In this document: piece by piece, positions 21,524 to 36,143 of the stretch
Numbering within the stretch: the stretch's first letter is position 1
Layout: each line of letters opens with the position of its first letter
Origin: an uncultured Chloroflexia bacterium
GTDB taxonomy: Bacteria; Chloroflexota; Limnocylindria; QHBO01
Length of the DNA: 64,000 nucleotides
NCBI GenBank assembly: GCA_963805305.1
Contig: CAWDTM010000008.1
Location: 450,885 to 514,884 of the forward strand
Direction: 5' to 3'
Made by a program: the position numbers and the translations under genes
Notes under the pieces: generated by a model
What the model was told of the DNA's origin: nothing
The model's input: only the letters and a program-made list of their open reading frames with translations
The model's database searches: none

Positions 21524-21621
21524 GCCGATGGCGCCTTGCCGCTCGCCGAACGGCTGTGCTATCGTCCTCAGCCGATACGCGACCACGAGCGGGCCGCAGA
21601 TCCGCGGGATCGAACAGGCGA

Positions 21622-21697: not shown

Positions 21698-21722
21698 CGC
21701 TGGGGCGCGCATCGGCAAACGG

Positions 21723-21798
21723 GCGGAAGTGGCTCAGTTGGTAGAGCATCACCTTGCCAAGGTGAGGGTCGCGGGTTCGAGTCCCGTCTTCCGCTCCA
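21723..21798 (+). tRNA. tRNA-Gly(GCC), CCA encoded
   Basis: The acceptor is GCGGAAG/CTTCCGC, the anticodon arm is TCACC-TTGCCAA-GGTGA, and the discriminator is U followed by CCA. Confidence 0.9.
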
Positions 21799-21848
21799 TT
21801 TTTCTGCCCGGTGGCTGATGACCTGCTAGCCTCGTGAGACGGATCCGC

Positions 21849-21922
21849 TGCCCCGTCGTCTAGTGGTAGGACAGCGGACTTTGGATCCGTGAACCGAGGT
21901 TCGAATCCTCGCGGGGCAGCCA
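21849..21922 (+). tRNA. tRNA-Gln(TTG), CCA encoded
   Basis: The acceptor is TGCCCCG/CGGGGCA (U1-A72), the anticodon arm is GCGGA-CTTTGGA-TCCGT, and the discriminator is G followed by CCA. These match tRNA-Gln identity elements. Confidence 0.85.
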
Positions 21923-21935
21923 GTGCGAACGTCGG

Positions 21936-22009
21936 GGCGACGTGCCCGAGTGGTTAGGGAGCGGTCTGCAAAACCGCGTACACCGGTTCAATTCCGGTCG
22001 TCGCCTCCA
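21936..22009 (+). tRNA. tRNA-Cys(GCA), CCA encoded; integration target of the island
   Basis: The acceptor is GGCGACG/CGTCGCC, the anticodon loop is CTGCAAA, the T-arm is CCGGTTCAATTCCGG, and the discriminator is U followed by CCA. Confidence 0.9.
21966..22009 (+). repeat. attL core (3' 44 nt of tRNA-Cys)
   Basis: The sequence ctgcaaaaccgcgtacaccggttcaattccggtcgtcgcctcca is identical to 35037-35080. Imperfect identity (8 of the next 11 nt) continues to 22020/35091. Confidence 0.9.
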
Positions 22010-22054
22010 ACATCTGAGCCTGAATCGGGCGTTCTGAGCCGATCGTTGCGACGA

Positions 22055-22079
22055 CCGGCAGCAATACCGGCAGCAACAG
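22055..22079 (+). repeat. Tandem CCGGCAGCAA(CAG) motifs between attL and int (candidate arm-type recombinase sites)
   Basis: ccggcagcaa lies at 22055-22064 and ccggcagcaacag at 22067-22079. The same 13-mer recurs at 34932-34944 near attR in the same orientation. Confidence 0.5.
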
Positions 22080-22164
22080 ACGTACAATCGCGGACGTAGA
22101 ACGACGCTCCGCCGGGGGAGAGCGGAGCGTCGATACGGAAGTCCTGTTAGGGAGGACGACCGCG

Positions 22165-23376
22165 ATGGCATCGTACCCGACCCGACGCAGCCGGCATCGC
22201 TCGGCTGGCGAGGGGAGCATCTATCAGTCGCCCGATGGTGGCTGGCGCGGTGCGATCACCTGGACTGAGCCCGACGGCAGCCGACATCGTCGGCAAGTCC
22301 GCGGCCGTACGTCAGCCGAAACCCGCGAGCGCCTTGACCAGCTGCGGGCCAAGCTCCGCACAGGGACCCTCGAACCGGCCGGCGCGGCAACGGTGGGGGA
22401 GTACCTCGCCGGATGGCTTGACCGCGAGCGGCAGCGTCTCCGCCCGTCGACCTGGCGCCAGCGCGAGCAGTACGTTCGGTGCTACCTGACGCCCGGCCTT
22501 GGGCGTCGACCCCTTGGCAAGCTCATGCCAGCTGACGTCGAGCACCTGACCGCCAGCCTGGTTGAGCGTGGGCTGTCGGCGAGGACTGCGAGCCATGCCC
22601 GCATCATCCTCCGGCGGGCGCTTGGGGATGCCCTTCGTGATGGCTTGGTGAATCGGAACGTCGCGGCCCTTGCGCGGCCACCGCGCGTGACGGCGCGGAC
22701 GATCGAGCCAGGGCGGGACTACCTGACGGCTGCGCAGCTGCGCACGCTGATGACGGCGGCCGCGCTCCATCCCATTGGACCCCTTGTCACCTTGGCCGCC
22801 ATGACCGGCCTCCGCCAGGGCGAGCTCCTCGGCCTGTCCTGGGACGACGTCGACGTTGACGCCGGGTCCCTAACCGTTCGGCGCGCGCTGGCACGCGCCT
22901 GGGGCGGGGGAGTGGAGCTCTCAGCGCCGAAGACGCCAAAGAGTCGCCGAACGATCCAGCTGCCGGCCGTGGCCCGCGCGGCGCTCGAGCGGCAGCGGGA
23001 TCGTCAGGACACCACACGCATAGCCGCAGACACCGCCTGGCAGGATCGGGACGGCCTGATCTTCACCGACAGTATCGGGCGACCGCTCCACCGGGTTACC
23101 GTGCATCGGGCCTTCCATGAACTGCTGCGGGCCGCTGGCCTGCCATCCATACCGTTCCATGGGCTGCGGCACAGCGCGGCCACGGCGCTCCTCACCGCTG
23201 GCGTGCCACTCCGCGTCGTGAGCGACCTCCTCGGACACTCAGGCATCGCCATCACCAGTGACTACTACGCCCACGTCGAGCCGGAGCTACGCCGCGAGGC
23301 AGCCGAGGCGATGGACAGGGCGATGGCTGGAGCCGGCGCTCGATCACACAACGCACCGCAGGGACGCGCGAAATGA
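22165..23376 (+). CDS. int: Tyrosine recombinase / phage-type integrase
   Basis: It has an N-terminal SAM-like domain. Catalytic signatures are TGLRQGELLGLSW (Arg), HGLRHSAATALL (His-x-x-Arg) and LLGHSGIAITSDYYAHV (His...Tyr). Confidence 0.9.
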   Translation: MASYPTRRSRHRSAGEGSIYQSPDGGWRGAITWTEPDGSRHRRQVRGRTSAETRERLDQLRAKLRTGTLEPAGAATVGEYLAGWLDRERQRLRPSTWRQREQYVRCYLTPGLGRRPLGKLMPADVEHLTASLVERGLSARTASHARIILRRALGDALRDGLVNRNVAALARPPRVTARTIEPGRDYLTAAQLRTLMTAAALHPIGPLVTLAAMTGLRQGELLGLSWDDVDVDAGSLTVRRALARAWGGGVELSAPKTPKSRRTIQLPAVARAALERQRDRQDTTRIAADTAWQDRDGLIFTDSIGRPLHRVTVHRAFHELLRAAGLPSIPFHGLRHSAATALLTAGVPLRVVSDLLGHSGIAITSDYYAHVEPELRREAAEAMDRAMAGAGARSHNAPQGRAK

Positions 23377-24110
23377 GCCGCGAGGCGGGTCCCGAGGAGA
23401 CCTATCCATTGGCTCCTGATACCCTCAAGGTCGAGCATGAGCGGGGGGAACACAGCCCAGTTCGCCGGCAGGGCTGTCCGGTGTGTCAGATGGAGGCGGG
23501 ACGGGCAGCTCGCAAGCGCTCCAGACGTCGCCTGCCACCCGGGATGACTGCGATTGGGGCCAGCACCCCGGCGGGGTTCCTGTATGTCACTCTCTGGCGC
23601 GTGTTCGGCGAGGTCACACCGTTCGACATGGAGCTGGCCCGGCAGGCTCCGGACGGGTCGCCCACGGACCCGCACGATCTCGACCTTTCACAGGTCAGTC
23701 CGCTTGTCGGAAATGCGGTCGTGACCGTAGCCGCCGCGCATGCCGCCAGAGGCGAGCGGCCGGATCTCGAGACCAACGCCTGGGAGCGCATTGCGCGCGT
23801 CGTCTGGCCGACCCTGTCTGCGCAGCAGCGGATGGATCCCGCCGAGATCAGCGCGGCCATCACCCTCATCAGCCCGCGCAGTCGCCGTGCAAGGGCGCGA
23901 CGCACGCCGCCTCCGCGGCGGGGCCGGGGTCGACCGGCCTGGACACCAAGGCAATTCTGGCTGAACTTGAGAGAGGCCGAGGCCAGCGCGGCCCCTTCCC
24001 GTCGCCCGGACGATGTCGCTGCCGAGTTCCGCAGGCTGGATGGCTCGAAGGGAGTCAGCACAGAACATTTCATGCGCCTTCGTGCTCGGTTTGGCGGGGG
24101 ATCATCCTAA
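23373..24110 (+). CDS. Hypothetical protein, translationally coupled to int
   Basis: Its start overlaps the int stop (ATGA). The third codon position is mostly G/C in this frame. It has a single CPVC pair and a basic Arg-rich segment, and I recognise no family. A 195-aa antisense ORF covers the same DNA, so the coding call is moderate. Confidence 0.5.
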   Translation: MSREAGPEETYPLAPDTLKVEHERGEHSPVRRQGCPVCQMEAGRAARKRSRRRLPPGMTAIGASTPAGFLYVTLWRVFGEVTPFDMELARQAPDGSPTDPHDLDLSQVSPLVGNAVVTVAAAHAARGERPDLETNAWERIARVVWPTLSAQQRMDPAEISAAITLISPRSRRARARRTPPPRRGRGRPAWTPRQFWLNLREAEASAAPSRRPDDVAAEFRRLDGSKGVSTEHFMRLRARFGGGSS

Positions 24111-24189
24111 ACGGCCCTTCCACCGCGAAACGAATATGAGCCCGTTTTCCGGCATTTAGTCGTCCCTGCGACCATGGTTTCATCGGGCC

Positions 24190-24408
24190 ATGTCCACAGC
24201 CCAACGCCGCAGGAACCTATCGCTGAGGATTCCGGATTCCGCGATCGCGAACCTCGCGGAGCTCGCAGACGCTGACTTCCGCTCGCCAGCGCAGGAAGCG
24301 GCGATCCTTCTGGTCGCAGCCATTGAGCAGGGAACGCGTCTTCGGCGCCGGCGGCTCGCACGGAGTGAGGCTCGGCCCGTGGACCGCCGGGGGGTTGGCG
24401 AGTCATGA
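24190..24408 (+). CDS. Ribbon-helix-helix (CopG/Arc-like) small DNA-binding protein
   Basis: RNLSLRIPDSAIANLAELADADFRSPAQEAAILLVAAIEQG fits a beta-strand plus two-helix RHH pattern. Length is 72 aa. It follows a lower-GC intergenic region. Confidence 0.6.
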   Translation: MSTAQRRRNLSLRIPDSAIANLAELADADFRSPAQEAAILLVAAIEQGTRLRRRRLARSEARPVDRRGVGES

Positions 24409-24680
24409 CCGCGGGCGACGCGATTCACGCCGCCATCGACGAACTCGTGGACGCGTTGTTAGTTGCTCTGCGTACGCAGCAGAAGTCGCCCGCTCCGGTC
24501 GATCGTCTTCTAAGCATCAGTGAGGCCGCCGCGACCCTCGGCATCGGACGGACAGCGCTCTATAGCGAGCTCACAACTGGCCACCTGCGGTCCTTCAAGG
24601 TGGGGCGCAGGCGGCTGATCCCGGCATCCGCGATCGATGAGTACATCGCTCGCGGCGAGGTAGGTCCAGATGAGCGCTGA
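24405..24680 (+). CDS. Excisionase-family (MerR-like HTH_17) DNA-binding protein
   Basis: LLSISEAAATLGIGRTALYSELTTGHLRSFKVGRRRLIPASAIDEYI is the typical excisionase/AlpA-type HTH. Its start overlaps the RHH gene stop (ATGA). Confidence 0.75.
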   Translation: MTAGDAIHAAIDELVDALLVALRTQQKSPAPVDRLLSISEAAATLGIGRTALYSELTTGHLRSFKVGRRRLIPASAIDEYIARGEVGPDER

Positions 24681-24686
24681 GCGAAG

Positions 24687-25937
24687 GTGGAGGCGGGTCA
24701 CATGACCCGGCTGGCCAATGCCCTCGATGCGGTCGAGTCCCTGCTCGCTCGCTACGTAGTGTTTCCTTCTGATCATGCCGTGGTCGCCACCGCGCTTTGG
24801 GTGGCCCACACCCACGCCGTTGACGCCGCTGAAACCACCCCGTATCTCGCGATCGTGAGCGCGGAGAAGCAGAGCGGCAAGACCAGATTACTGGACGTGC
24901 TCGAGCTCGTTGTCCACCGACCATGGCGTCCGATTGAGCCGTCCGACGCGGTCGTCTACTCGATGATCGAGCAGCGCCATCCCACACTGCTTCTCGATGA
25001 GGTTGACGCCCTCTTCGGGTCAAGGCTCGCAGCAGCCCAACACGAGGCGCTACGTGGCATTCTGAACGCCTCGAACCGGCGGGGTGCCCGGGTCGCCCGC
25101 GTCGAGATGAATGGGCGAGAGCGGCGCCTCGCAGAGTTCGACGCCTTCGGGGCCAAAGGTTTCGCTGGGATCCGGGCCCTGCCAGAAACCCTCCGCGATC
25201 GCTCCATCGTGTTGGAGCTCCGCCGGAGAGCACCATCCGAGGTTATCGAACGCTTCCGCCGACGGGATGTGGCTCCGGAAGCTGCGCGTATTCGTGCTGA
25301 GCTCGTCGAGGCTATCGGCGAGGTCGAGCTCGCCAGCCTCCGCCCCGACATCCCAGCAGGGCTGGATGACCGTGCAGTCGATGGCTGGGAACCACTCTTG
25401 GCCATCGCCGATGCTGCGCGCGGCGAATGGCCAATCAAGGCCCGCCGGGGGGCCATGGCGCTTTCGGGCGCCCGCGCGGCCGATGATCCAAGCCGTGGCG
25501 TCAGGCTCCTAAGTGATATTCGCGACATCTTCCAGGGCATCCCCGAAGAGCGGATCCCGAGCGCCGAGCTCGTACGCCAACTGAGTGCTCGCGAGGACTC
25601 AGATTGGGGTGACCTTCGCGGGCATGCGCTGACCGCCCAGGGACTCGCTCGACTCCTGAAGCCGTACGGCATACATCCGAACCTATGGCGGATCTCGGGC
25701 GAACCGGAGCGGGGGTACGCTCGGTCAGACTTCGAGGACGCTTGGTCTCGCTACCTTGATCCGCTCCCCGCTGACGAGATGGGTGACCGTTACTTCGTTA
25801 CCGACGACCGAGCAACCCGTAACGACGTAACGAGGGATGCCCACCGAGCGCCGAGCGCAACGGGGGATGGTCCGAAGCCTTGGGCCTCGGACGCGGCACC
25901 GAATGGTGCTGAAGAACAGACGACGTGGATGGCATGA
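24687..25937 (+). CDS. DUF3631-type protein (module often found C-terminal to the primase/helicase of actinobacterial integrative elements)
   Basis: From memory it matches the DUF3631 pattern: RYVVFPSDHA.VA.ALWVAHTH, SAEKQSGKTRLLDVLELV, LLLDEVDALFG, GFAGIRALPETLRDRSIVLELRRR and DRAVDGWEPLLAIADAARGEWP. The start is GTG 24687 or ATG 24702. Confidence 0.75.
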   Translation: MEAGHMTRLANALDAVESLLARYVVFPSDHAVVATALWVAHTHAVDAAETTPYLAIVSAEKQSGKTRLLDVLELVVHRPWRPIEPSDAVVYSMIEQRHPTLLLDEVDALFGSRLAAAQHEALRGILNASNRRGARVARVEMNGRERRLAEFDAFGAKGFAGIRALPETLRDRSIVLELRRRAPSEVIERFRRRDVAPEAARIRAELVEAIGEVELASLRPDIPAGLDDRAVDGWEPLLAIADAARGEWPIKARRGAMALSGARAADDPSRGVRLLSDIRDIFQGIPEERIPSAELVRQLSAREDSDWGDLRGHALTAQGLARLLKPYGIHPNLWRISGEPERGYARSDFEDAWSRYLDPLPADEMGDRYFVTDDRATRNDVTRDAHRAPSATGDGPKPWASDAAPNGAEEQTTWMA

Positions 25938-26782
25938 GACTTCCCGCCGACGCTCGCTCCCGCGGGCTCAGCCTGACCGCAGACCGGTCTCGCCCGCTTC
26001 GTGTCGCCCTCTACGCCCGAGTCAGCACCCGGGATAAGGATCAGGACCCCGAGCTCCAGCTGACCGCGATGCGTGAGTACGTGCAGGCTCGCGGCTGGGA
26101 CGCGACCGAGTACGTCGATACGGCGGCCGCCGGAGATCTCGCCCATCGCACGGCCTGGACGCGGCTGCTCGATGATGCCCGCCGCCGGCGGATCGACCGG
26201 GTCCTGGTTTGGAAGCTGGACCGCGCCTTCCGCTCGACACTCCACGCCTTAGCCACCCTGCGGGACCTCGACTACGTCGGGGTCGGCTTCTCGGCACTGA
26301 CCCAGCCCGAGCTCGATACCACCAGCGCCACCGGCCGGCTGGTGTTCACCATCCTGGCCGCGGTGGCCGAGATGGAGCGCGAGCTCATCGCGGACCGGGT
26401 CCGGGAAGGGATGCGCCAGGCGGCGCGCCGCGGATCCCGCATCGGTCGACCGCCGGTGACCGCGCGTCCTGGCTTCTCCGCCCGCTGGCAGCTCGTACGC
26501 CGTGAGATGGCCGAAGCCGGCCTTTCTCGGCGCCAAGCGGCCCGCAGACTGCGGATCGGAACGGCCACGCTGAACCGCCTTCTTGCCGCTAATCCCGTCG
26601 CCGACTTCGCGGAGAGCACGCAGTCGTCGGCCACGACATCTACGGACGGCTCCGGCTCGCTCCGGCGCGATGAGGTCAGCCGGTACCGCGGACGCGTCGC
26701 CCCAGTCGAGCGGACCGAAGAGGTGGGTTCCGGCCGGATTCGGTCAGTTTCTGGCGAAGGAGTCACCGTCAATGGCAGATGA
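25934..26782 (+). CDS. Small serine recombinase (resolvase/invertase type)
   Basis: It has VALYARVSTRDKDQD (catalytic Ser), VLVWKLDRAFRS, GRLVFTILAAVAEMERELIADRV and a C-terminal HTH (QAARRLRIGTATLNRLL). The ATG at 25934 overlaps the upstream stop (ATGA); a GTG at 25925 is also possible. Confidence 0.85.
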   Translation: MRLPADARSRGLSLTADRSRPLRVALYARVSTRDKDQDPELQLTAMREYVQARGWDATEYVDTAAAGDLAHRTAWTRLLDDARRRRIDRVLVWKLDRAFRSTLHALATLRDLDYVGVGFSALTQPELDTTSATGRLVFTILAAVAEMERELIADRVREGMRQAARRGSRIGRPPVTARPGFSARWQLVRREMAEAGLSRRQAARRLRIGTATLNRLLAANPVADFAESTQSSATTSTDGSGSLRRDEVSRYRGRVAPVERTEEVGSGRIRSVSGEGVTVNGR

Positions 26783-26984
26783 CCTCATGCCGCGAGAGGC
26801 GATTCTGGCGGTCCTGTCGGTGGGCCCGGCGAGCACCTCCGAAATCGCGGAGGAGCTTGGGATGCCTGAGCGCAGTATTCGGCGGAACCTCCGCCGTCTG
26901 GCGCGCGAGGGGTACGTCTTCTCCCCAGTGCGCGGATGGCACCGACTTACGGCGCTGGGTCGGATCGCCATAGAACCGCGCTGA
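26772..26984 (+). CDS. Small winged-helix (MarR/ArsR-like) DNA-binding protein, 70 aa
   Basis: REAILAVLSVGPASTSEIAEELGMPERSIRRNLRRLAREGYVFSPVRGWHRLTALG fits a wHTH. I used the internal ATG of track ORF 26583-26984; it overlaps the recombinase 3' end by 11 nt. Confidence 0.55.
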   Translation: MADDLMPREAILAVLSVGPASTSEIAEELGMPERSIRRNLRRLAREGYVFSPVRGWHRLTALGRIAIEPR

Positions 26985-27035
26985 TACCGTTGGCCAAACG
27001 ATGACGGGGGCGGACCGGGGCTGAGGGATCATGAC

Positions 27036-28142
27036 GTGACGGACGAGTACTTCCTGGAGCCGGCGGCGGCAGATCTAGCGCTGCCCAGGTGGGACGAGAA
27101 CCCGGTCGACTACTACCGACGCTCTGGTGCACCGGAGGCCCGGGCGGTCCGCGAGTTCTTGAACCGGACTCTCGCCCTCTTCCCCGAGAAGCATGCGCGG
27201 AGCCTTGTGGGCAAACTCCGCCAGGATTGGCAGTCCTTCTTCTTCGAGATCATCGTTGGGCGGTATCTCCAGGTTCTCGGGGCTGAGATCGAGCCGAGTG
27301 CGAAATACGCCGACGAGACAGACGTGGACTATCGGGCCACATTCCCAGACGGCGTCGTGTCGGTGGAATGTGTGTCCAAGAAGTACAACCGGGCCGCGCA
27401 CGACCAACGGCGCCGAAACGCGAACATGGTCCAGATGCTCGATGCGGTTGGGCCCCACGCGTGGGCCATCGTCTTCCGCCACCTGCCGGACGCACGCAGT
27501 CCTGAGGAGTTCCAGCCGTATGTGGATCAAGCGGCGGCGTTCTATTCGAGTCTACCGACCACTGCGGAAGAAGGCCTGCGCATCCCTTTCCGGTGGGAGG
27601 GTGACCGTGGTGAGATGCGGCTCGAGGCCCTCCCGTTCCCACAGGGAACCCGTCCCAATCATTTCGGGCCAGCGATTGCCTGGTATGACGACTCGATCGG
27701 CCGTATCAAGGCTGCTCTGATCGATAGCCATAAGCGGCGGCAGGCACGCGCGGCCTTTCCGCCCGTATTCCTAGCTGTCGACTCGCCGTTCATGGGGCCG
27801 GACGCCAGCGATTTCGACCAGGCTCTGTTTGGACAGACCGTCGATCACCGTGGTTTTGACATCGCTGAGAGCGTGGGCACGTCATTCAATCCGAACGGGC
27901 TGCTGGTAACGGACAAGGCCATTCCGTTCGCGGGGGTCATCGCGTTCCTTGGCATGGGAATGACGGGAGCTCGCGATCCGATCATCTACCTCAACCCGTA
28001 CCAACGTTGGAGCCTGCCGGCTGCGCTGGCTGCGCACGAGCGCAGGGTGTGGATCTCTGGCATCGAACGCAGACCAGCAGCGAGACCGCCCGTCATCGAG
28101 CAGGTCGGCTTCATCCAGTACCCCGCGGATGACGATCCCTAG
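27036..28142 (+). CDS. Hypothetical soluble protein (368 aa), family unknown
   Basis: The GTG start lies 7 nt after GAGGGA. The frame has coherent codon usage at lower GC than the core genome. I recognise no family. FFFEIIVGRY...DVDYRATFPDGVVSVECVSKKY is loosely like a PD-(D/E)xK nuclease core. Confidence 0.6.
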   Translation: MTDEYFLEPAAADLALPRWDENPVDYYRRSGAPEARAVREFLNRTLALFPEKHARSLVGKLRQDWQSFFFEIIVGRYLQVLGAEIEPSAKYADETDVDYRATFPDGVVSVECVSKKYNRAAHDQRRRNANMVQMLDAVGPHAWAIVFRHLPDARSPEEFQPYVDQAAAFYSSLPTTAEEGLRIPFRWEGDRGEMRLEALPFPQGTRPNHFGPAIAWYDDSIGRIKAALIDSHKRRQARAAFPPVFLAVDSPFMGPDASDFDQALFGQTVDHRGFDIAESVGTSFNPNGLLVTDKAIPFAGVIAFLGMGMTGARDPIIYLNPYQRWSLPAALAAHERRVWISGIERRPAARPPVIEQVGFIQYPADDDP

Positions 28143-28267
28143 TCCCCACCAGTCATGAGGACTGCCCCGAAAGGGGAGGCTCCGTGCGGTCGGTTGCAGG
28201 TGCTCACGGCCGCCTCGAGAGGGGAGCGCCCCCAAAGGAGGTCTATCCGGGCCGGTGAGGTGGGCCA

Positions 28268-28295
28268 TTGACCGGCCATAGCCAGCTGGTACGCT
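28268..28295 (+). promoter_or_regulatory. Sigma70-like promoter TTGACC-16 nt-TACGCT upstream of the 28337 gene
   Basis: I read the hexamers and the 16-nt spacer directly from the sequence. GGGGGAGAAG precedes the ATG at 28337. Confidence 0.35.
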
Positions 28296-28336
28296 CGCGA
28301 TGACCGTTTCGCGGCCCGCCCGGGGGAGAAGAGTCC

Positions 28337-29500
28337 ATGAGTTGGTGGCTGAGCATCGCGTTCGACGGGGTGTATGCCGGGGCCGTGGCCTGGGTGGGCC
28401 TCGCCTGCGTCCTGCCCGAGCTGCGGATTCGTGGCGCACGCCGGGCGCTGCTTGCCGTCCTCGCGGCGGGCATCGCCGCACCGCCCGTGGTGGCGGCGCT
28501 CTCCGCCGTGGTCGATGTCCGCATCGCGATCGCCGTGTCGGGCCTGCCGGTGCTCGCTGCCTGGATCGTGCCGCAATGGCTCGTGCGTGTTTCAGGTGGG
28601 CCCCGACCCTCCCGCAGCGATCTAGCCGAGGTCATGAATGGCGTGCAGCTGGCCAACCAGCATTTCGAGGTCGGCGACATCGATACCTGGCGCCAGGAAC
28701 TCGCTAAGCTCGACGCGCTCCGCACGCCGGCAACCGAGCGCTACATCGACCTCTGGCAGCGCTATGCCGCGGAGGAGGCCGAACGCCGAGCTGGCTCGCG
28801 ACAGTCAAGCAGGGAGACTTTGGAAGCCATCCGAAGCACGGCGGGCGAGATGGCAACCAGGGCTTTCGCTCTCCGCCCGAGACTGCTCGGCTTCCTCGTC
28901 GTGGTGGCAGTCGTGGTGGCCACCCTGCCCCAGGTTGCCGTCGCTACGCTCCTGCCTCAGGCGTCGGCCGACGCATGTATCCGGGCCACCGCCCTGTTGG
29001 GTTCAACGCCGGCCATTGGCGACCAGCCCTCGGATCCACAGACACTCGCGAGCCTGCTGCTGACAGATCCAGGAAGCGCAGCCAGCCTGGTCGATCAAGG
29101 CATTCTCGATCTCGATACGCTGGCGGCCAGCCGCCACGACCCGAACTCCCGCCAGGAACTGATCGACGACCACTACCTCACCGGCTATGCACGCACCTGG
29201 GAGACGCCCGACGGTCGAGCGATCGATGTTGAAGTCCAGCAGTTCGCCACCGCCTCTGGAGAAGCGGCCTTCGACCGATCCATGGTTAGCCATGCGTGCG
29301 CCTACTCGAACACGGCCTTCGAGGTGCCCAGCGGCGGGGTTGGCTTGCAGATCCGGTATGGCACGGGCGATCCCATCCACGAGCAGATCTCCTGGGTGGT
29401 GGGTGCGCGTCGCCTGCTCGTGAGCCGTACCTTCCTGGTCACGCCCGCCACACATAGCGTCATCCTGGATCTAGCGGCTCGAACGCGCGCGCTCTCTTAG
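28337..29500 (+). CDS. Hypothetical multi-pass membrane protein with a C-terminal extracytoplasmic domain (387 aa)
   Basis: It has several N-terminal hydrophobic helices (e.g. AGAVAWVGLACVL, LLAVLAAGIAAPPVVAAL, IAIAVSGLPVLAAWIV), a charged linker, another TM (LLGFLVVVAVVVATL) and then an approximately 190-aa domain. I recognise no family. Confidence 0.6.
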   Translation: MSWWLSIAFDGVYAGAVAWVGLACVLPELRIRGARRALLAVLAAGIAAPPVVAALSAVVDVRIAIAVSGLPVLAAWIVPQWLVRVSGGPRPSRSDLAEVMNGVQLANQHFEVGDIDTWRQELAKLDALRTPATERYIDLWQRYAAEEAERRAGSRQSSRETLEAIRSTAGEMATRAFALRPRLLGFLVVVAVVVATLPQVAVATLLPQASADACIRATALLGSTPAIGDQPSDPQTLASLLLTDPGSAASLVDQGILDLDTLAASRHDPNSRQELIDDHYLTGYARTWETPDGRAIDVEVQQFATASGEAAFDRSMVSHACAYSNTAFEVPSGGVGLQIRYGTGDPIHEQISWVVGARRLLVSRTFLVTPATHSVILDLAARTRALS

Positions 29501-29640
29501 CGGCGGACGCGGTGGCTTGGCGCTCCGAGAACTGAAATGGGGTCCTTTTGCCCTGGGCGACTCCGACTCCAGACGGGCGTCCCCGTGCGACCGGAACCAT
29601 GCCCGGACCTGCTAGGTCTGCCTGCGGCGCGCGGCTGTCC

Positions 29641-32070
29641 TCACGGGAGCCCCTGCCATGTGTGCCCTCCATCGCCGGACACGAACAGCAGCGCCGAACC
29701 CGGGTAGGAGTTGCCAGCTGGAACGAGGGTGGCTAGGTCCCCTCCCTGTAGGGTTGCAATCCAGATCATCCACCCGCCGTTGGCAAGTCCGTTCGTGGCA
29801 ACCTGCTGCCAGGAGGCACCGGCATCAGCAGTCGATAGCAGGGCGAAGGGGTTGTCGACCGGGAGCAGCCAGTGGGCGGCATCGATGGCCGCGAGCCCAG
29901 CGCTCGCCTCGACCGGCCGGTCCGAAGCGAGCGTCCAGGTGGCCCCGCTGTCCGTGGTTTGGAAGATCCTCGTGTGTGAGCCATCGGGCTCGGCGATCGT
30001 GACCGCCACCACGCCCGACTGTGGGCTGAGGAAAACCGGCGGTCCGGCCAGGTAGACCATCGGACCACCTTCCTGGTGCGGTGCAATGCCAGGGAGCGCG
30101 ACCTCGGCCCAGGTCTGACCGCGATCGCGGCTCACTTCGAGCACGGGGTGGACGACCGGGCCGGCCTCCTCCTCCGCACCCGACCACAGGGTCGAGGCAT
30201 CGCTGACGGTGAACTCCGAGCCAAGGTTCGGCACCGACCCGACCTGCGTCCAGGTCCGTCCGCCATCTGAGGTGCTGAGGACCCTGCTGATCCCGTCGCT
30301 GAAGCGCTGCTCGGCGGCGAGCAGGTACCCGTGCTGGGCATCGACGAACGAGAGCACCGGCGCGTGCGAGGCAAAGTTGCCGGGCACCGTCGTCGATCGC
30401 CACGACGCGCCGCCATCGGCAGTCTGCCAGACGACGTAGCGGAGTACGTCTGTGGGCGAACCGGTGACGTCCGTGCTGCCCGCTCCGATACTCACCAGCC
30501 AGGCACGGGAGGCGTCGAAAGCTGTTGCGGCCATCACCTTGGTCGCCTCAACCGGCAAGGGATGCTCCTGCCAGGACGCGATCGCATCCGCGGCGACCCG
30601 CCAGCTCGAGCCGCGGATGGCCCACACGCTGCCATCGGCTCGGCCGGCTCCTGCGAGGTACAGCGCGTCACCCATGGCGGGACTGGCGGTTGGGGCGGGT
30701 GTGGGCGCTGGTGTCGCGGCTGGCGTCAGCCCAAAGGAGCCGAGCCAGATGGTGGTGGTGAATCGGGTGGAAGGGGTGGTTGTGGTCGTCACCAGCACGA
30801 CACCCTCCGGACCGAGGGCGGCGACGGCCCCCGCCCTGTTCAGCGGCGGCAGCCCACCGGTCTGGGGCACCTGCTGCCAATGCTGCGCATCACTCGACAG
30901 CCAAGCGCCATGCGTCGCGCTGCTGGACTGCGTACCGAGGGCCAGGATGCGTGACCCATCCGACACAAGCACAGGACCGTTGTCGCCCCATCCGAACGGG
31001 ATCACGCCGCCCTCCCCACGCCATGCGGATCCGTCAGCGGTCACGGAAACAACGGCGCCGAGGCGTTGCAGCGAGACGCTGAGCGCGCCCGCCGCACTGC
31101 TCAGGAGGGTCGCCCCGACCGACTGTGCCCCGGCGGCTGCATGCCACGTCCGCCCATCGGTTGAATACCAGGCGGCCGGGCCTGCGACCGATCCATCCGG
31201 CGCCTGCCGGTAGCCAACAGTGACATAGGTGCCCCCGGTGACGACCACATTCGTCGGCACCACCCCTGGGAACGCTGCGGAGAACTGCGACGCCGCTTCC
31301 CAGCTCCTGCCGTCGGGTGAGGTCCAGATCGTTCCCTTCCCTGCACCGTTGGCGGGAGCCTGTGCTCCGACCGCCACAATGCCCGCCGGACCGGAAACTA
31401 CGTCGCTGAACGCCACGCGCCCAAAGGCGGCGAGGTCCGCATCGGGCAGGCGATCCCACGTTCTCCCGTCGGGTGAGGTCCACATCCGCAGAGCCATGGC
31501 TGGATTGCAGCCGAACACGCCGCCGGCGCACTCGCTGTCGAGGCGGTTCGAGCTCCCCACGATCAACAGCCCGTCAGGGATGCGCACGATCTGCTGCAAC
31601 AGGCTATCGGCGAACACCGGATCCGCATCATGGCGCTGCCAGGTCCGCCCGTCCGACGAGTACCACCAGGCCGCGTGGTCGGCATTCTGTGCATTGCCGA
31701 CCAAGACGTACCCGCCGTCGTAGGCGATTGCGCTCATCACGGTATCGCCATCGGCGAGGGCGTCGCCGCCGGTACTCGCGACGCTGCCCCAGGCGATGCC
31801 GGCGATGGCGGCTGCGGACGCCGATGGCGATGGCGATGGCGACGTGGCCTGAGGGCCCGGGTTGCGCGGAACAAGCGCGAATAGCAGCGCGGCTGCCACC
31901 ACGAGCACCGGCAGCGATGCGAGCCACACCAGGCGGAACCCGCGCCTTGGACGGCGCGCCTCGGCGTCGGCTGGCAGTCGCTCCAGGAAGGCGCGCAGGG
32001 TCTCTGGCGCTTCCGGCAGACGTTCGCCGCGCAGCGCGTCCTGGAGGCGTCGCTGGAGGTCGTCGCTCAT
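29641..32070 (-). CDS. Membrane-anchored protein with two BNR/Asp-box beta-propeller domains (putative anti-sigma/sensor partner of the upstream ECF sigma)
   Basis: It has a short cytoplasmic N-terminus, one TM (LVWLASLPVLVVAAALLFALV) and at least ten S/T-x-D-x-G-x-T/S-W boxes (SSDGRTW, SPDGRTW, SPDGRSW, STDGRTW, TADGGASW, TSDGGRTW, SRDRGQTW, TTDSGATW, TADAGASW, SGDGGHTW). These fall into two blocks separated by a TPAPTPAPT linker. Its start overlaps the sigma gene stop (ATGA). Confidence 0.85.
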   Translation of the reverse strand: MSDDLQRRLQDALRGERLPEAPETLRAFLERLPADAEARRPRRGFRLVWLASLPVLVVAAALLFALVPRNPGPQATSPSPSPSASAAAIAGIAWGSVASTGGDALADGDTVMSAIAYDGGYVLVGNAQNADHAAWWYSSDGRTWQRHDADPVFADSLLQQIVRIPDGLLIVGSSNRLDSECAGGVFGCNPAMALRMWTSPDGRTWDRLPDADLAAFGRVAFSDVVSGPAGIVAVGAQAPANGAGKGTIWTSPDGRSWEAASQFSAAFPGVVPTNVVVTGGTYVTVGYRQAPDGSVAGPAAWYSTDGRTWHAAAGAQSVGATLLSSAAGALSVSLQRLGAVVSVTADGSAWRGEGGVIPFGWGDNGPVLVSDGSRILALGTQSSSATHGAWLSSDAQHWQQVPQTGGLPPLNRAGAVAALGPEGVVLVTTTTTPSTRFTTTIWLGSFGLTPAATPAPTPAPTASPAMGDALYLAGAGRADGSVWAIRGSSWRVAADAIASWQEHPLPVEATKVMAATAFDASRAWLVSIGAGSTDVTGSPTDVLRYVVWQTADGGASWRSTTVPGNFASHAPVLSFVDAQHGYLLAAEQRFSDGISRVLSTSDGGRTWTQVGSVPNLGSEFTVSDASTLWSGAEEEAGPVVHPVLEVSRDRGQTWAEVALPGIAPHQEGGPMVYLAGPPVFLSPQSGVVAVTIAEPDGSHTRIFQTTDSGATWTLASDRPVEASAGLAAIDAAHWLLPVDNPFALLSTADAGASWQQVATNGLANGGWMIWIATLQGGDLATLVPAGNSYPGSALLFVSGDGGHTWQGLP

Positions 32071-32684
32071 GACACGGTGTCCGCTGCCGCCGACTCGCCC
32101 AGCTCGACCTCCAGCCGCCGGAGGGCGTGGTGCAGGCGCGACTTCACGGTGCCCACCGGCCAGCCGGTGCGTTCCGCGACAGCATCCAGGGTCAGATCGG
32201 CCCAGTAATGAAGGATGACAACGATGCGCTGGTCGCGATCGAGGATCGCGAGGGCTCGGGTCGCCTCGTCGCGGTCGAGGAAGAGGTCGAACGGGTCACG
32301 GATCGCAGCATCCCGGGCGACCTCCAGCTCCACGAACCGCACTCTGCGGCGACGGCGGAGACGATCCCGGCAACCGTTGACCAGGATGCGGTCGAACCAC
32401 GCGGCAAAGCCGGCAAGGTCCCGGAGCGTTGCGCGTCGGTGCCAGGCTCGCACGAGAGCGTCCTGGACGGCATCCTCCGCCTCCGTTCGGTCGGCGAGCA
32501 GCAGCCCAGCCAATCGATAAGCGCGGTCCAACCCATGGCGGGCAAGCCGCAGGAAGCGCTCGGTGACCTCGTCCTCGGTCCTCGTTGTGAGCGCTCCCTC
32601 CGTGAACCAGCGACTGGCAATCGTTGCGTACATCCCGATTGTTCCAGACGAGCGAAGGGCCGGAACTGTTCTCGGCGCAGCCAC
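32067..32684 (-). CDS. ECF-type RNA polymerase sigma-70 family factor
   Basis: Region 2 is EDAVQDALVRAWHRR...FAAWFDRILVNGCRDRLRRR and region 4 is LDRDQRIVVILHYWADLTLDAVAERTGWPVGTVKSRLHHALRRL. The start could instead be the ATG at 32633. Confidence 0.85.
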   Translation of the reverse strand: MAAPRTVPALRSSGTIGMYATIASRWFTEGALTTRTEDEVTERFLRLARHGLDRAYRLAGLLLADRTEAEDAVQDALVRAWHRRATLRDLAGFAAWFDRILVNGCRDRLRRRRRVRFVELEVARDAAIRDPFDLFLDRDEATRALAILDRDQRIVVILHYWADLTLDAVAERTGWPVGTVKSRLHHALRRLEVELGESAAADTVS

Positions 32685-32788
32685 TCCAGGAGCGATTCCC
32701 GAAAGGACCTCTTTTTGGGCCGAGCTCCGAGCAACGCTTCTTGAGCGCCGATCGGGCCTGCGGAGCGGCCGCCTTTTCGGACCGAGTC

Positions 32789-34195
32789 TCAGTTGCTCGG
32801 TAACGTCATCACAGGCAGTGGCAGCTCCACGTTCCCGCCGAGCATCGCCGCGCTGAAGTCCGGGGGTGGCGTAGGCGCTCCGCCGATGCCCCGGTACATC
32901 AAGAACCAGCCGGCGGGTAGCTCAGCGCCAGCAAACTGCTGCTCGGCTAGCCCGACATCGGTGTAGGCCGGCTTGAAGGTGGCGGAGAACTCCGAAGTGC
33001 GGCTGCGATCTGTCAGGTCAATGGCCGTTACGGTCCAGGTACCGGCTTCGTATACAACCCCCTCACCAAGGACGAGCGGTCCATGCGGGCCGGAGATCAA
33101 CTGCTTAGGCGCGAATGGAGCATCCTGGCCGCCGAGCGGCCAATGGTCGCCGGTGCGCAGGTCCACCACGAACCCGTCGCACTCGGCTTCGCCGCAGGTG
33201 TTGCCGCCGATGAGCAGGTCCCCGGTAATGCCGGTGAGGGATCCGTCGAAGAAGAAGTCTGTGAGATGGAGCGGCGGCGCGGCGCCATCGGGTCGCACCG
33301 CGTACAGCTCGCAACTGGTGGTTGGGCAGCTGAGCAGAACGACCCAGCCGCCATCGGCGGAGACGACCAAGTGTGGAAGATACCTGCTGCTGGCCGTGAC
33401 CGAGCCGAGGCGATCCGGGTTGATGAGCAGCCGCGGCTCGCCGCCATCGGTCGCAATCGAGAAGACGCCGGAAGGCTGCCCCGTCTGGCGGTCGGCCTCG
33501 AGGAAATAGGCGGTCTGCCCCGATGGGTCGAGGGCAAGCTGAGCGATGAGGTCGGTGGTCTGCATTGGCTGGCGCTCTGTGCCCGTCAAGGCATTCACGG
33601 CGTGGAGGGTCGCCCACTGACCGTCGTCGGTAACGTAGACCACCAGACCACCGGCTGGGCCCGCCGGCTGCGGGGTCATGGGCATGCCGAGTGGGCCGAG
33701 GGTGGTGCGGGGCAGGCTGATCGACCGCGTCACCGTCCCGTCGAGCGTGCCAAGCCGCAGCGTGCTGTCGGTCATCGTGATTGGCGTCCAGAGCGTCCAG
33801 AACGCCTCGTGCGCCAGGTCAGGGGTAGTGGGTACGGTCGCGGCCGACCGCGCCACCGTGGGCCAGGTCGGTGGGGCCGTCGATTCCGGCGTTGCCGCCG
33901 GGCTGCCCGCGCCCGACGGCGCAGATGAGCCGCTCGGCGCCGGTCCGACAGGGGTGGGCTTCGGCGGGAAAACGCCCGCGAGGACCGCGACGGCCACAAG
34001 CAAGACGACCACCGAGGCGGCAGCGACGGTCGGGAGCATCCAGGTTGGCTGCAGCCGAGCGACCCATGTCCGACGCTGGGGGGTGTGGCGCACTTTGGCC
34101 ATGCCGCGCGCCAGGAGACCAGCGGGCGCCTCGCGAACGGCCCGTGCCTGAAGACGCTCGCGCACCTCGGCCTCGAACCGATCCTGAGCAGTCAT
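32789..34195 (-). CDS. Membrane-anchored protein with a TolB/PD40-like beta-propeller ectodomain (putative anti-sigma partner)
   Basis: It has an approximately 50-aa cytoplasmic N-terminus, a TM (MLPTVAAASVVVLLVAVAVLAGVF) and a Pro/Ser linker. Repeated strands follow: LALDPSGQTAYFL, FSIATDGGEPRLL, LVVSADGGWVVLL, LYAVRPDGAAP. Its start overlaps the sigma gene stop. Confidence 0.75.
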   Translation of the reverse strand: MTAQDRFEAEVRERLQARAVREAPAGLLARGMAKVRHTPQRRTWVARLQPTWMLPTVAAASVVVLLVAVAVLAGVFPPKPTPVGPAPSGSSAPSGAGSPAATPESTAPPTWPTVARSAATVPTTPDLAHEAFWTLWTPITMTDSTLRLGTLDGTVTRSISLPRTTLGPLGMPMTPQPAGPAGGLVVYVTDDGQWATLHAVNALTGTERQPMQTTDLIAQLALDPSGQTAYFLEADRQTGQPSGVFSIATDGGEPRLLINPDRLGSVTASSRYLPHLVVSADGGWVVLLSCPTTSCELYAVRPDGAAPPLHLTDFFFDGSLTGITGDLLIGGNTCGEAECDGFVVDLRTGDHWPLGGQDAPFAPKQLISGPHGPLVLGEGVVYEAGTWTVTAIDLTDRSRTSEFSATFKPAYTDVGLAEQQFAGAELPAGWFLMYRGIGGAPTPPPDFSAAMLGGNVELPLPVMTLPSN

Positions 34196-34737
34196 GCCGC
34201 ACCTCCCTGGCGAGCGAAGTCGCCCTCGGCATCGAGAGCATTGCGCAGGGCGGCTTCCGCGCGGGACAGACGTGACTTGGCGGTGCCGAGGCGGATGCCC
34301 AGCGCGTTAGCGACCTCCGGCACCGAGTGGCCGAGGTAGTGGCGGAGGACGATCACCGCGCGATGGTCAGGACTGAGCCGGTCGAACGCGCGATCGACGG
34401 CGTCGAGCTCGGCGACTGCCGCGGCCGGATCACCACTCACGGCGGCATCCGGATCCAGCTCGAGCTCGGCGCGGGCGTGTCGGCTCCGACGGGCCAGGTC
34501 CAGGCAGGCGTGGACCAGCACTCGGTGCAGCCAGCCGGCGAAGCGGTCCGGGTCGCGCAGCGTTGGCAGGTCCCGCCAGGCGCGCAACATCGTCTCCTGC
34601 ACCGCGTCCTCCGCCAGCACGGGGTCATGAAGGATCAGGCGGGCGGCCGCGTACAGACGATCGAGCCGGGCGGCGATCAGGTCCTCAAAGGCCAGCTCGT
34701 CGCCGCTTCGCGCTCGGAGGACCAATTCCCGCTCCAC
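34192..34737 (-). CDS. ECF-type RNA polymerase sigma-70 family factor
   Basis: It has LVLRARSGDELAFEDLI, region 2 (AEDAVQETMLRAWRDLPTLRDPDRFAGWLHRVLVHACLDLARR) and region 4 (LSPDHRAVIVLRHYLGHSVPEVANALGIRLGTAKSRLSRA). Confidence 0.9.
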   Translation of the reverse strand: MERELVLRARSGDELAFEDLIAARLDRLYAAARLILHDPVLAEDAVQETMLRAWRDLPTLRDPDRFAGWLHRVLVHACLDLARRSRHARAELELDPDAAVSGDPAAAVAELDAVDRAFDRLSPDHRAVIVLRHYLGHSVPEVANALGIRLGTAKSRLSRAEAALRNALDAEGDFARQGGAA

Positions 34738-34931
34738 GTCGGTTCCCCCGCCTACTCTCTACTCAGTCAGGCGCACCGAACCGTCGATTCGTTCCCGCGC
34801 CGGTGCCCTACTGTGCGCGGCAGGCTATCGCCCCCGAAGTGCCGTGGAGCCTTCGCAATGCGGGCCAACTGGCATTGTGCCGAGGGGCTGGCCGCAATCG
34901 CAGTCCGGCCGAATCAGTGGCGGCATCAACG

Positions 34932-34944
34932 CCGGCAGCAACAG
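34932..34944 (+). repeat. Third copy of the CCGGCAGCAACAG motif, about 90 nt inside attR
   Basis: It is an exact 13-mer match to 22067-22079. Confidence 0.5.
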
Positions 34945-35036
34945 GGGCGGACCACGGCGGTCAAAAGGTCGACCTGACCGGCCGATCTGAGCGTGGCGAC
35001 GACGCCAACGGACGTCCGCGGACGGTATGGCCATCC

Positions 35037-35080
35037 CTGCAAAACCGCGTACACCGGTTCAATTCCGGTCGTCGCCTCCA
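35037..35080 (+). repeat. attR core (duplicated 3' 44 nt of tRNA-Cys; not a complete tRNA)
   Basis: It is identical to 21966-22009. The upstream sequence does not continue the tRNA: there is no D-arm and no 5' acceptor strand. Confidence 0.9.
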
Positions 35081-35234
35081 TCGTCTGAGCCCGGCATCGA
35101 CGGACATCCAGCCCCCTGTCATCCAGCGCTACACTCTCGTCCGAGGCTCCAGGCGCATCGGACGGCTCGCCTTCACACGCTCCTTGAGCGGGACGAAGTC
35201 ATCAGGCGCTTTCAGCGACCCGAGGAGCGCGCCG

Positions 35235-36143
35235 GTGGCTGATCGCACACTCGAAATCGACGCGATCTCCAAGCGCTACGGAAGCACCCCTGCCGTGCAG
35301 GAGCTCAGCTTCGAGGTCAGGGCCGGTGAGCTCGTCGGCTTCGTGGGGCGCAACGGGGCGGGCAAGACCACCACCATGCGCGTCGTGCTGGGAGTGCTCG
35401 AGCCGGACGCGGGTGAGGTGCGCTGGGCCGGGACCCGCCTCGACGTCGAGGCACGCCGGCAGATCGGCTACATGCCGGAGGAGCGCGGTCTCTACCCAAA
35501 GATGCGCGTGGCCGAGCAGCTGGCCTACCTTGGTGCGCTCCACGACATGACCGATGCCGACGCGCTGAGCGCCGCCGCGCACTGGTTGGAGCGCTTCGAG
35601 CTGGGTGAGCGCCGCAACGACGAGCTCCAGGCGCTCAGCCTGGGGAACCAGCAGCGGGTCCAGCTGGCCGCCGCTCTCGTCTTCTCGCCGGACATGCTCG
35701 TGCTCGACGAGCCCTTTGCCGGGCTCGACCCGGTGGCGGTGGACGTCATGAGCGTGGTGCTCCGCGAGCAGGCCGATGCCGGCCTCCCCGTGATCTTCTC
35801 CAGCCACGAGCTCGAGCTCGTCGAACGGATCTGCGACCGGGTCGGGATCATCGACCGCGGCCGGATGGTCGCCTGCGGCACGGTCGACGAGCTGCGCTCC
35901 GGCGGCCGCGAACGCCTGTGGCTCGACGTGCCAGGCGCCCCTGCAGACTGGGACGTCGGCGTGCCTGGCGCCCGGGTCGTGCAGGCCGATGGCTCGCGCC
36001 GGCTCCTCGAGCTCGACGACGGGGTGGACGACCAGGCCATCCTCCAGGCCGCACTGGTGACTGGGCCGGTTCGCGAGTTCGAACGAGCGCAGCCCTCCCT
36101 GGGCGAGCTCTTTCGCTCGGTCATCGAGGAGAGTGCGCTATGA
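35235..36143 (+). CDS. ABC transporter ATP-binding protein (ABC-2 / NatA-like)
   Basis: It has the Walker A GRNGAGKTTT, the signature LSLGNQQRV and the Walker B MLVLDEPFAGLD. I placed the start at the GTG at 35235. The rest of track ORF 34563-36143 runs through attR and is not coding. Confidence 0.85.
   Translation: MADRTLEIDAISKRYGSTPAVQELSFEVRAGELVGFVGRNGAGKTTTMRVVLGVLEPDAGEVRWAGTRLDVEARRQIGYMPEERGLYPKMRVAEQLAYLGALHDMTDADALSAAAHWLERFELGERRNDELQALSLGNQQRVQLAAALVFSPDMLVLDEPFAGLDPVAVDVMSVVLREQADAGLPVIFSSHELELVERICDRVGIIDRGRMVACGTVDELRSGGRERLWLDVPGAPADWDVGVPGARVVQADGSRRLLELDDGVDDQAILQAALVTGPVREFERAQPSLGELFRSVIEESAL

Follow-up and report, generated by a model that had tools for sequence, protein, structure and literature searches.

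A 13-kb integrative element with a plasmid-type replication gene and no recognisable transfer genes in a tRNA-Cys gene of an apparent soil Chloroflexota

In contig CAWDTM010000008.1 of an uncultured Chloroflexia bacterium, a tRNA-Cys gene is followed by 13 kb that open with an integrase gene and close with a second copy of the 3′ part of the tRNA. The window analysed here, a stretch of 64,000 nt of this contig, thus raises the question of what lies between the two copies: is it a single mobile element, how would it be maintained, and how could it spread? An earlier note on the same DNA had read it as an integrative island in tRNA-Cys, either of a mobilisable or satellite type or purely integrative. 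The insertion itself is supported by the att repeats, by the integrase and by an empty attB in a related genome. We consider it likely that the island is one intact element of 13,071 bp, which would excise, replicate itself and reintegrate, which carries no transfer genes, and which would depend on a helper for its spread.

The limits of the element are set by three features.

21936-22009, forward strand: tRNA-Cys(GCA), whose 3′ 44 nt are the attL core
21966-22022, forward strand: attL identity segment, found by string comparison, by repeat search and as a 57-nt blastn overlap in the related contig L003
35037-35093, forward strand: attR identity segment, a partial copy of tRNA-Cys and not a tRNA gene, with 44 perfect and 13 imperfect nt

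The tRNA-Cys gene is intact, being called both by ARAGORN and by Rfam (RF00005, 62 bits), and is the final gene of a Phe-Gly-Gln-Cys tRNA cluster. Positions 21966-22009 and 35037-35080 are identical at 44 of 44 nt, from 2 nt before the anticodon to the CCA. There is no extension of the identity on the left, and to the right 8 of the 11 following nt agree. This is the repeat that the earlier note had described, and string comparison and a repeat search (which returned the attL/attR pair as a 55-nt repeat of 96% identity) both confirm it; in all, the identity covers about 57 nt. A 26-nt sub-pattern of the repeat, allowing up to 3 mismatches, is found at two sites only in the 64 kb, and in 0 of 100 shuffles. 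Neither ARAGORN nor Rfam calls a tRNA at 35037-35080, in agreement with the note's view that this copy does not belong to a second full tRNA gene. No degenerate att copy, which would be a sign of a tandem or composite island, was found inside the island, and it is therefore a single element.

The insertion can also be seen by comparison with a genome that lacks it. A search of species-representative genomes with the flanking ABC permease found a single relative, contig CAVXEH010000009.1 of a metagenome-assembled genome (MAG) named 'uncultured Chloroflexia bacterium', in which the permease is 86% identical. This contig is L003 in our numbering of related loci. It shares eight tRNAs with the window, in identical order. 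The ABC ATPase gene begins 157 nt past the end of tRNA-Cys in L003 and 155 nt past attR in the window; the island is absent from L003, and the flanks are collinear on both sides. By blastn, L003 6608-8952 matches window 19680-22022 with 90.5% identity, and L003 8896-11745 matches window 35037-37878 with 85.7% identity. The two segments abut in L003 with an overlap of 57 nt, which shows that this segment is duplicated in the window, and a three-way alignment agrees with both the flank junction and the 57-nt duplication. The empty site that the note had suggested looking for in relatives is thus present, with tRNA-Cys directly before the ABC transporter and the 13,071 bp missing, and the island content is not shared by the relatives.

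The note had also pointed to a shift in base composition. Its two counts, 36/60 and 48/60 G+C, are correct but were hand-picked, and the bulk shift is weak (67.8% G+C in the island, 70.4% in the flanks). The difference is best seen in the G+C content of third codon positions (GC3), with a mean of 0.77 in 8 island open reading frames (ORFs) and 0.86 in 35 outside ORFs, based on a crude selection of ORFs (Mann-Whitney p = 3e-4). The ABC transporter genes to the right of attR (window 35235-37315) also have a GC3 of about 0.77-0.80, compared to 0.86-0.93 for most host genes, and these are syntenic in the island-free L003.

The island was also found in two other contigs. One Logan contig carries the same island with 100% identity, and an ENA contig from the same project (L001, ERZ25039463 contig_40543) is 99.1% identical to window 12192-33375, with 59 gap openings. 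Several housekeeping genes in L001 are split (CofD, iPGM, HtpX), which resembles long-read indel error rather than biology. Exact-protein look-ups with the flanking ABC ATPase and HtpX gave no match, which for the ATPase may be explained by a GTG start translated as V. The nearest genome is labelled uncultured Chloroflexia, and relatives of the integrase and of the replication protein are labelled Chloroflexi, Chloroflexota or Limnocylindrales, these being MAG labels only.

What, then, would move the element in and out of the tRNA gene? The integration apparatus lies at both ends.

22055-22078, forward strand: tandem 12-nt repeats CCGGCAGCAAYA, two copies, in the P′ arm; candidate arm-type integrase sites
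22103-22131, forward strand: hairpin GACGCTCCGC / GCGGAGCGTC with a 10-bp stem, between attL and int and just upstream of int
22165-23376, forward strand: tyrosine integrase (Int), 403 aa; Phage_integrase E 2e-27, SAM_3 and Phage_int_M; phrog_1 E 1e-71
24405-24680, forward strand: excisionase (Xis) of the HTH_17 type, 91 aa; PF12728 E 4e-11, TIGR01764 'excise' E 3e-11
34932-34943, forward strand: third copy of the arm-type motif, CCGGCAGCAACA, in the P arm, found by motif scan

The int gene begins 156 nt past tRNA-Cys. Relatives of Int with 70-88% identity adjoin tRNA-Cys or tRNA-Ser genes and are abundant in soil metagenomes, where those with a named source are mostly labelled Chloroflexi or Chloroflexota. 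A more distant relative, with 36% identity, is the integrase of the Streptomyces plasmid NZ_CP108973.1, an actinomycete integrative and conjugative element (AICE). The CCGGCAGCAAYA motif has only 3 matches in the 64 kb, all of them within about 115 nt of the att cores: the tandem pair lies 46-69 nt inside attL, and the single copy 94-105 nt inside attR. In the circular form the copies would flank the core, in the manner of arm-type integrase sites, for which they are candidates. The tandem pair is kept in a related element (L088), and in two others both copies have changed, reading CTGGTAGCAAC in L085 and GTGGCAGCAACA in L090. That the two copies change together argues for a protein-binding site.

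The hairpin between attL and int is identical in L088, is also kept in L090, and in L085 shows two compensatory pair changes and one mismatch. The predicted fold of the surrounding region (22010-22170) has a z-score of -2.8. The hairpin may insulate or shield int, or control it.

The question of maintenance is addressed by the gene that follows xis and by a repeat region within it.

24702-25937, forward strand: RepAM-type (DUF3631) replication initiator-helicase (Rep), 411 aa; PF12307 E 3e-48
25788-25833, forward strand: origin-like site within the 3′ end of rep, with two CGTTAC-type repeats followed by two inverted CGTAACGA repeats; hairpin

An alternative GTG start for rep lies at 24687. DUF3631 (PF12307) serves as the marker for RepAM, which initiates replication of the integrative element pMEA300 (Ghinet et al. 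2011, PMC3218068). The repAM gene encodes the pMEA300 replication protein, and RepAM binds repeats of 8 bp located inside its own 3′ coding region; multiple identical 8-bp repeats in the 3′ end of repAM can form a hairpin (te Poele review, PMC2440964). The island protein contains a Walker A motif (SAEKQSGKT) and a Walker B motif (LLLDEVD), and is 38.5% identical to the Rep of the TraB-bearing Streptomyces plasmid NZ_CP108973.1. From its sequence, it is identifiable as a replication initiator-helicase of the RepAM type. An AlphaFold (AF2) model built on 30 homologs has a pLDDT of 84, and Foldseek matched it to MCM, the helicase region of the NrS-1 primase-polymerase, RuvB, PriRep1 and AsfvPrimPol (probability 1.0, E 3e-6 to 1e-4). 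The predicted fold thus matches that of hexameric replicative helicases. These matches came from fold comparison alone, as searches of PDB sequences with Rep, both as a single sequence and as a profile, were empty. Some Rep homologs carry a fused DnaB-N, zf-CHC2, Toprim or RepB-primase domain; no primase domain was found in the island.

The repeats were identified by reading the sequence and by Tandem Repeats Finder. Copies of CGTTAC lie at 25788 and 25796, and a tandem pair of the inverted CGTAACGA at 25818 and 25826; the direct and inverted sets pair in the predicted DNA fold (z = -2.0). The elements with the closest Reps (L004, L005 and L006, 68-74% identical) have the same motif in the same two-plus-two inverted layout, with a spacer between the sets that varies. 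In L088, L083 and L007 the layout is kept and the motif is changed. The repeats read GGTACC in L088, CGAAAYA/TGTTTCG in L083 and CGCTACC in the Streptomyces plasmid. The motif therefore co-varies with Rep across the relatives, as would be predicted for a cognate binding site. We suggest that 25788-25833 is a candidate replication origin or Rep binding site, which by analogy matches the published RepAM site.

All four genes on which the earlier note based its reading (a tyrosine integrase, an excisionase-type helix-turn-helix (HTH) protein, a DUF3631 protein and a serine recombinase) are present by domain match. Its alternative of a purely integrative island is not upheld, since a RepAM-type Rep with origin-like repeats makes the element replicative and plasmid-like.

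The remaining backbone genes occupy the space around xis and rep.

23373-24110, forward strand: conserved core protein with a CxxC motif, 245 aa; its start overlaps the int stop codon, and it shares 47% identity over the full length with its positional counterpart in L090
24190-24408, forward strand: small protein, 72 aa, 40% identical to the 64-aa protein at the same position in L090
25934-26782, forward strand: small serine recombinase of the resolvase/invertase type, 282 aa; PF00239 E 3e-38, phrog_125 DNA invertase E 2e-46
26772-26984, forward strand: winged-helix (ArsR/TrmB-like) protein, 70 aa; precomputed Pfam matches to HTH_5, HTH_20 and TrmB

The 245-aa protein has no family match in Pfam, NCBIfam, PHROGs or PADLOC, and the 72-aa protein has no Pfam match. 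Small ORFs are found in the position of the latter in L088, L004 and L006 as well, and its sequence pattern looks by eye like that of a ribbon-helix-helix regulator. The winged-helix protein, a probable regulator, shares 70-76% identity with its counterparts in L088 and L090 and 41-45% with those in L004 and L006. Scans for promoter and terminator consensus sequences gave counts at or below those expected from shuffles.

The serine recombinase is 75-83% identical in L004, L006, L088 and L090, and always comes directly after the replication gene. A role as a second integrase or as an IS607-type transposase was considered and rejected, as its place directly after the replication gene is the same whether the element has a tyrosine integrase or a larger serine integrase. 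On the basis of its position and conservation, we propose that it may be the multimer resolvase of the excised circle. It has a C-terminal tail of about 60 aa (window 26590-26782) that is absent from the 218-aa forms in L004 and L006; the L088 and L090 proteins are long, at 270-272 aa. Only the last 11 nt of the tail overlap the winged-helix ORF, in a different frame.

The related loci show that these genes form a recurrent unit. The order in the sister elements is Int, the 245-aa protein, a small protein, Xis, a replication slot, the small serine recombinase, the winged-helix protein and then variable cargo. The backbone order is fixed; what varies is the integrase, the replication protein (a divergent DUF3631 or an AAA_25 protein), the cargo and the target tRNA, which is tRNA-Cys or tRNA-Ser. 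L088 and L089 have the order Int, 183 aa, 57 aa, HTH_17, DUF3631, resolvase, winged helix and different cargo, and L088 is 88% identical in Int, 75% in the resolvase and 76% in the winged-helix protein, with only 42% in Rep. L090 follows tRNA-Ser(TGA), with an Int of 70% identity, an Xis, a resolvase of 77% and a winged-helix protein of 70%; between its Xis and its resolvase, the replication slot is taken by an AAA_25 protein (L090 12860-14230), a non-homologous replacement of DUF3631. L004 and L006 have a Rep of 68-70% identity, a resolvase of 83% and an HTH_20 protein, and in these a 409-417-aa serine recombinase replaces the tyrosine integrase. Finally, three MAG contigs (L085-L087) carry an Int of 77% identity 155 nt past tRNA-Cys in the same TatC...LemA-HtpX-tRNA locus, each contig ending just after int.

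Beyond the winged-helix gene, the island carries six further genes.

27036-28142, forward strand: orphan protein, 368 aa; 80 homologs of 50-87% identity, no Pfam domain and no name
28337-29500, forward strand: membrane protein, 387 aa, with three hydrophobic segments
29641-32070, reverse strand: single-pass membrane protein with BNR/sortilin-like repeats, 809 aa; Sortilin-Vps10 and PSII_BNR matches, transmembrane residues 44-62
32067-32684, reverse strand: Sig2, sigma-70 factor of the extracytoplasmic function (ECF) type; Sigma70_r2, r4_2, ECF
32789-34195, reverse strand: single-pass membrane protein, 468 aa, transmembrane residues 50-68; its start overlaps the Sig1 stop codon; no Pfam match
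34192-34737, reverse strand: Sig1, ECF-type sigma-70 factor; Sigma70_r2, r4_2, ECF

Of the three homologs of the 368-aa protein whose context was examined, two adjoin an integrase remnant, or an integrase and a DUF3631 gene. The AF2 model of this protein has a pLDDT of 90. Its Foldseek search gave no significant match (best E 0.067), and the weak list consists mostly of PD-(D/E)xK nucleases (SfsA, Hjc, cap-snatching endonucleases and the R2 endonuclease domain). Residues 65-149 of the model have the alpha-beta-beta-beta-alpha-beta order typical of PD-(D/E)xK, with E71, D98 and E111 invariant. The N-terminus is therefore only tentatively suggested to be a PD-(D/E)xK-like nuclease domain, as the structural match was not significant. 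A search for a conserved partner beside the homologs, which served as a test of a gene pair with the 387-aa protein, found none.

The 387-aa protein has no family match in the same four databases. Its gene lies in a block (28231-29549) that is 96% identical at the nucleotide level to L088 9269-10586, in the opposite orientation and with sharp borders; no inverted or terminal repeats were seen at the ends of this 1.3-kb block. The backbones of the island and L088 are 78-83% identical, and the much higher identity of the block points to a recent exchange of a cassette.

The other four genes form two minus-strand operons (34737-32789 and 32684-29641), each with an ECF sigma factor followed by a membrane protein. 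Sig1 is 42% identical to Sig2 and 59% identical to a sigma factor in L090. The 468-aa protein is likely to be an anti-sigma factor, and the 809-aa protein, whose gene start overlaps the Sig2 stop codon, is likely to be the anti-sigma partner of Sig2. Two sigma/anti-sigma pairs are present here and another in L090, which shows that the family repeatedly carries regulatory circuits as cargo. PADLOC gave no defence-system match for any cargo gene of the island. In L004 (8856-12908) and L006 (6649-10923), an N6/N4 methyltransferase and a type IIG or ISP restriction enzyme (1000-1100 aa) follow the winged-helix gene, and the cargo slot at this position is possibly a hotspot for defence genes. In L088, the first cargo protein (5432-6424, 330 aa) has motifs that resemble, by eye only, an NYN/LabA-type nuclease domain.

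How the element could spread is less obvious from its genes. No capsid, portal, terminase, relaxase or FtsK/TraB gene was found among the island ORFs in searches of Pfam, NCBIfam, PHROGs and PADLOC, and the earlier note's statement that capsid, terminase and conjugation genes are missing is upheld. The negative result for relaxases applies to the domain, as a bare oriT could escape a domain search. A phmmer search with the Streptomyces TraB found nothing in the sister loci. The small and large terminase subunits (TerS, TerL), capsid, portal, HNH and known capsid-remodelling genes are absent from the island and from four sister elements alike.

The wider Rep family is of interest in this connection. 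A profile scan of IMG/VR with Rep gave 64 loci, of which the best is 49% identical to the island Rep; the close Rep clade (at least 67% identical) is not represented there. The neighbouring ORFs of 73 Rep-bearing loci were clustered and annotated, and tyrosine integrases were found in 39, HK97-type capsids in 23, portal proteins in 12 plus 7, and MobA/VirD2 relaxases in 5. These neighbourhoods also hold TerL, HNH, primase-polymerase (Prim-Pol) and methyltransferase genes. Six IMG/VR 'viral' contigs, four of 10-12 kb (L032, L033, L041 and L044) and two circular ones of 8-10 kb (L037 and L047), carry Int and a DUF3631 Rep followed by HNH, TerL, portal, scaffold and capsid genes; tail genes were not seen in them, and several of these capsid-forming, satellite-like Rep elements come from isolate genomes. 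In a further circular contig, of 10,370 bp (L062), a tyrosine integrase and a P27-type small terminase accompany an 830-aa fusion of a primase with DUF3631, a layout that resembles a phage-inducible chromosomal island (PICI). Two complete, free Streptomyces plasmids of 13-14 kb carry a DUF3631 gene. One of these, NZ_CP108973.1 of Streptomyces longwoodensis (14.3 kb), is annotated with int, HTH, DUF3631, Prim-Pol, TraB and TraA, and is a classic AICE in its free form.

Among known systems, the closest comparison is with elements of the pMEA300/pMEA100/pSE211 type. These share with the island a tyrosine integrase at the 3′ end of a tRNA gene that is restored on insertion, an HTH excisionase, and a RepAM/DUF3631 protein whose own gene contains, in its 3′ end, multiple 8-bp repeats that form a hairpin; the size is also similar, 13.3 kb for pMEA300 and 13 kb for the island. 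Unlike them, the island lacks the FtsK/SpoIIIE-type TraB/TraJ, the spread genes, the Nudix protein, the GntR/Kor regulator and Prim-Pol. Its gene order also differs, int lying beside attL and being read away from it, and xis being upstream of rep. It has in addition a conserved pair of serine recombinase and winged-helix protein that is unmentioned in the review (PMC2440964), and its host lineage is apparently Chloroflexota, whereas the pMEA hosts are actinomycetes. Lacking the defining translocase, the island is not an AICE.

Phage satellites with a DUF3631 Rep resemble the island in their size (8-14 kb) and in having an integrase beside a tRNA gene and a Rep, which in the satellites is sometimes fused to a primase, and they are known in integrated and circular forms. 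In contrast to the island and its sisters, they carry HNH, TerL, portal, scaffold and capsid genes, or TerS, and their Reps are at most 49% identical to that of the island. With PICI, capsid-forming PICI and P4-like elements, the island shares an integrase, an excision regulator and its own Rep helicase. Having no genes for packaging, it cannot be recognised as a satellite. The Sulfolobus plasmid pXZ1 (pRN/pSSVi-like) is similar in having an integrase and one large replication helicase, little else and no transfer genes. It differs in its archaeal host and far larger replication protein, and the island Rep matches only in its P-loop region, with 28% over 150 aa at E 2e-9, a weak and very distant similarity. 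Within the Chloroflexota, the IME1 elements of Dehalococcoides occur in integrated and circular forms without tailed-phage hallmark genes (bioRxiv 10.64898/2026.09.15.751708), but they are 21-28 kb long with 14 conserved gene groups including a pI-like ATPase, and the island has nothing comparable. It can best be described as the integration and replication half of a pMEA-type element, to which a resolvase-regulator pair and a cargo slot have been added.

On the basis of these comparisons, we propose the following life cycle. The element came in through recombination of its attP with the 3′ part of tRNA-Cys by the tyrosine integrase; the tRNA was rebuilt at attL, and a partial copy remained at attR. 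The left 5 kb of the element are the conserved backbone and the right 8 kb the exchangeable cargo. Int and Xis would excise the element as a circle; Rep would bind the inverted 8-bp repeats and replicate it, the small serine recombinase would resolve multimers, and Int would reintegrate it. Since the element has no transfer or packaging genes, movement between cells would occur via a helper (a phage, a satellite capsid or another element) or by passive routes.

Several observations weigh against this proposal or limit it. The origin rests on analogy with pMEA300 and on comparative conservation, and its hairpin has an energy that is modestly better than that of shuffles (z = -2.0). For the proposed resolvase, no res site was identified. 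A 28-nt attP/attR probe had no match in JGI metagenome contigs, which probably exclude this sample, so that this result is no evidence either way on the circle. Finally, the apparent placement of the host in the Chloroflexota follows the label of the nearest MAG.

Other explanations have to be set against a helper-dependent integrative plasmid. The island might be a phage satellite in the full sense, induced by a helper phage or a capsid-forming relative and packaged into its particles by means of a packaging site in cis. The size and the int/xis/rep layout would fit this, the Rep family is common in satellite-like elements as described above (HK97-type capsids in 23/73 loci, together with the portal, HNH and TerL genes and the PICI-like circle with its small terminase), and the prophage-like phiRv2 of M. 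tuberculosis has a RepAM homolog (PMC2440964). However, neither the island nor its four sisters contain any of the packaging, capsid or capsid-remodelling genes that were searched for, the close Rep clade is absent from IMG/VR, there is no known helper, and neither a cos nor a pac site was identified; we regard a satellite as unlikely. A further reading takes the lack of transfer genes as decay, the island being the remnant, now immobile and fixed in the chromosome, of a conjugative AICE-type element whose transfer module has been lost. The int-xis-RepAM genes are indeed homologous to those of a TraB-carrying Streptomyces plasmid, and the pMEA elements mostly co-evolve with their hosts (PMC2440964). 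Against this stand att repeats that are perfect over 44 nt, intact ORFs throughout the backbone, and conserved arm sites and origin repeats. The exchanged 1.3-kb cargo block and the empty site in L003 also speak against it. Moreover, the tra-less layout is shared by at least four sister elements that differ in their integrase, replication protein, cargo and target tRNA, and this recurrence suggests a stable design rather than decay. We therefore consider a remnant decidedly improbable.

It could even be argued that there was no insertion at all, the 13 kb being ancestral and L003 having lost them by deletion between direct repeats, as a deletion between the 44-nt repeats would leave the same empty-site sequence. 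This we find hardly credible: a partial tRNA copy beside an integrase is the hallmark of site-specific integration, the segment stands out as foreign by its GC3, other tRNAs are occupied by related integrases, and a precise loss via the att repeats would in itself be an excision. The reading as an intact, self-replicating element that relies on others for transfer thus remains the one we favour. A more ambitious version of it would place the element in a so far undescribed family, the RepAM-type 'integrative plasmids' of soil Chloroflexota without transfer genes, with a fixed backbone and swapped integrases, helicases and cargo. Its members would spread by being packaged, either by helper phages or by capsid-forming satellites with a Rep of the same family; the cargo slot would be a hotspot for defence or regulation, and the 368-aa and 387-aa proteins could be a new two-gene defence system. 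Taken as a whole, this extended picture is speculative and we hold it to be rather doubtful.

The element is a real, fairly ordinary and well-formed genomic island of a little-described modular family. Its significance lies partly in its host, as little has been described of integrative elements in Chloroflexota, and RepAM-type elements have so far been treated as an actinomycete speciality tied to conjugation. One replication module is here seen in four settings: a TraB-type conjugative plasmid, relaxase-bearing elements, satellites that form capsids or carry TerS, and transfer-less carriers of cargo. The Rep family thus provides a clean example of 'hitcher' islands built from interchangeable modules. 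The element also offers a testable system for an unculturable organism, in which attP and attB are defined, arm sites and an origin are available as candidates, and the fold of the helicase is known. The two ECF sigma/anti-sigma pairs suggest, in addition, that such islands move regulatory circuits that sense the cell surface, and not only defence genes.

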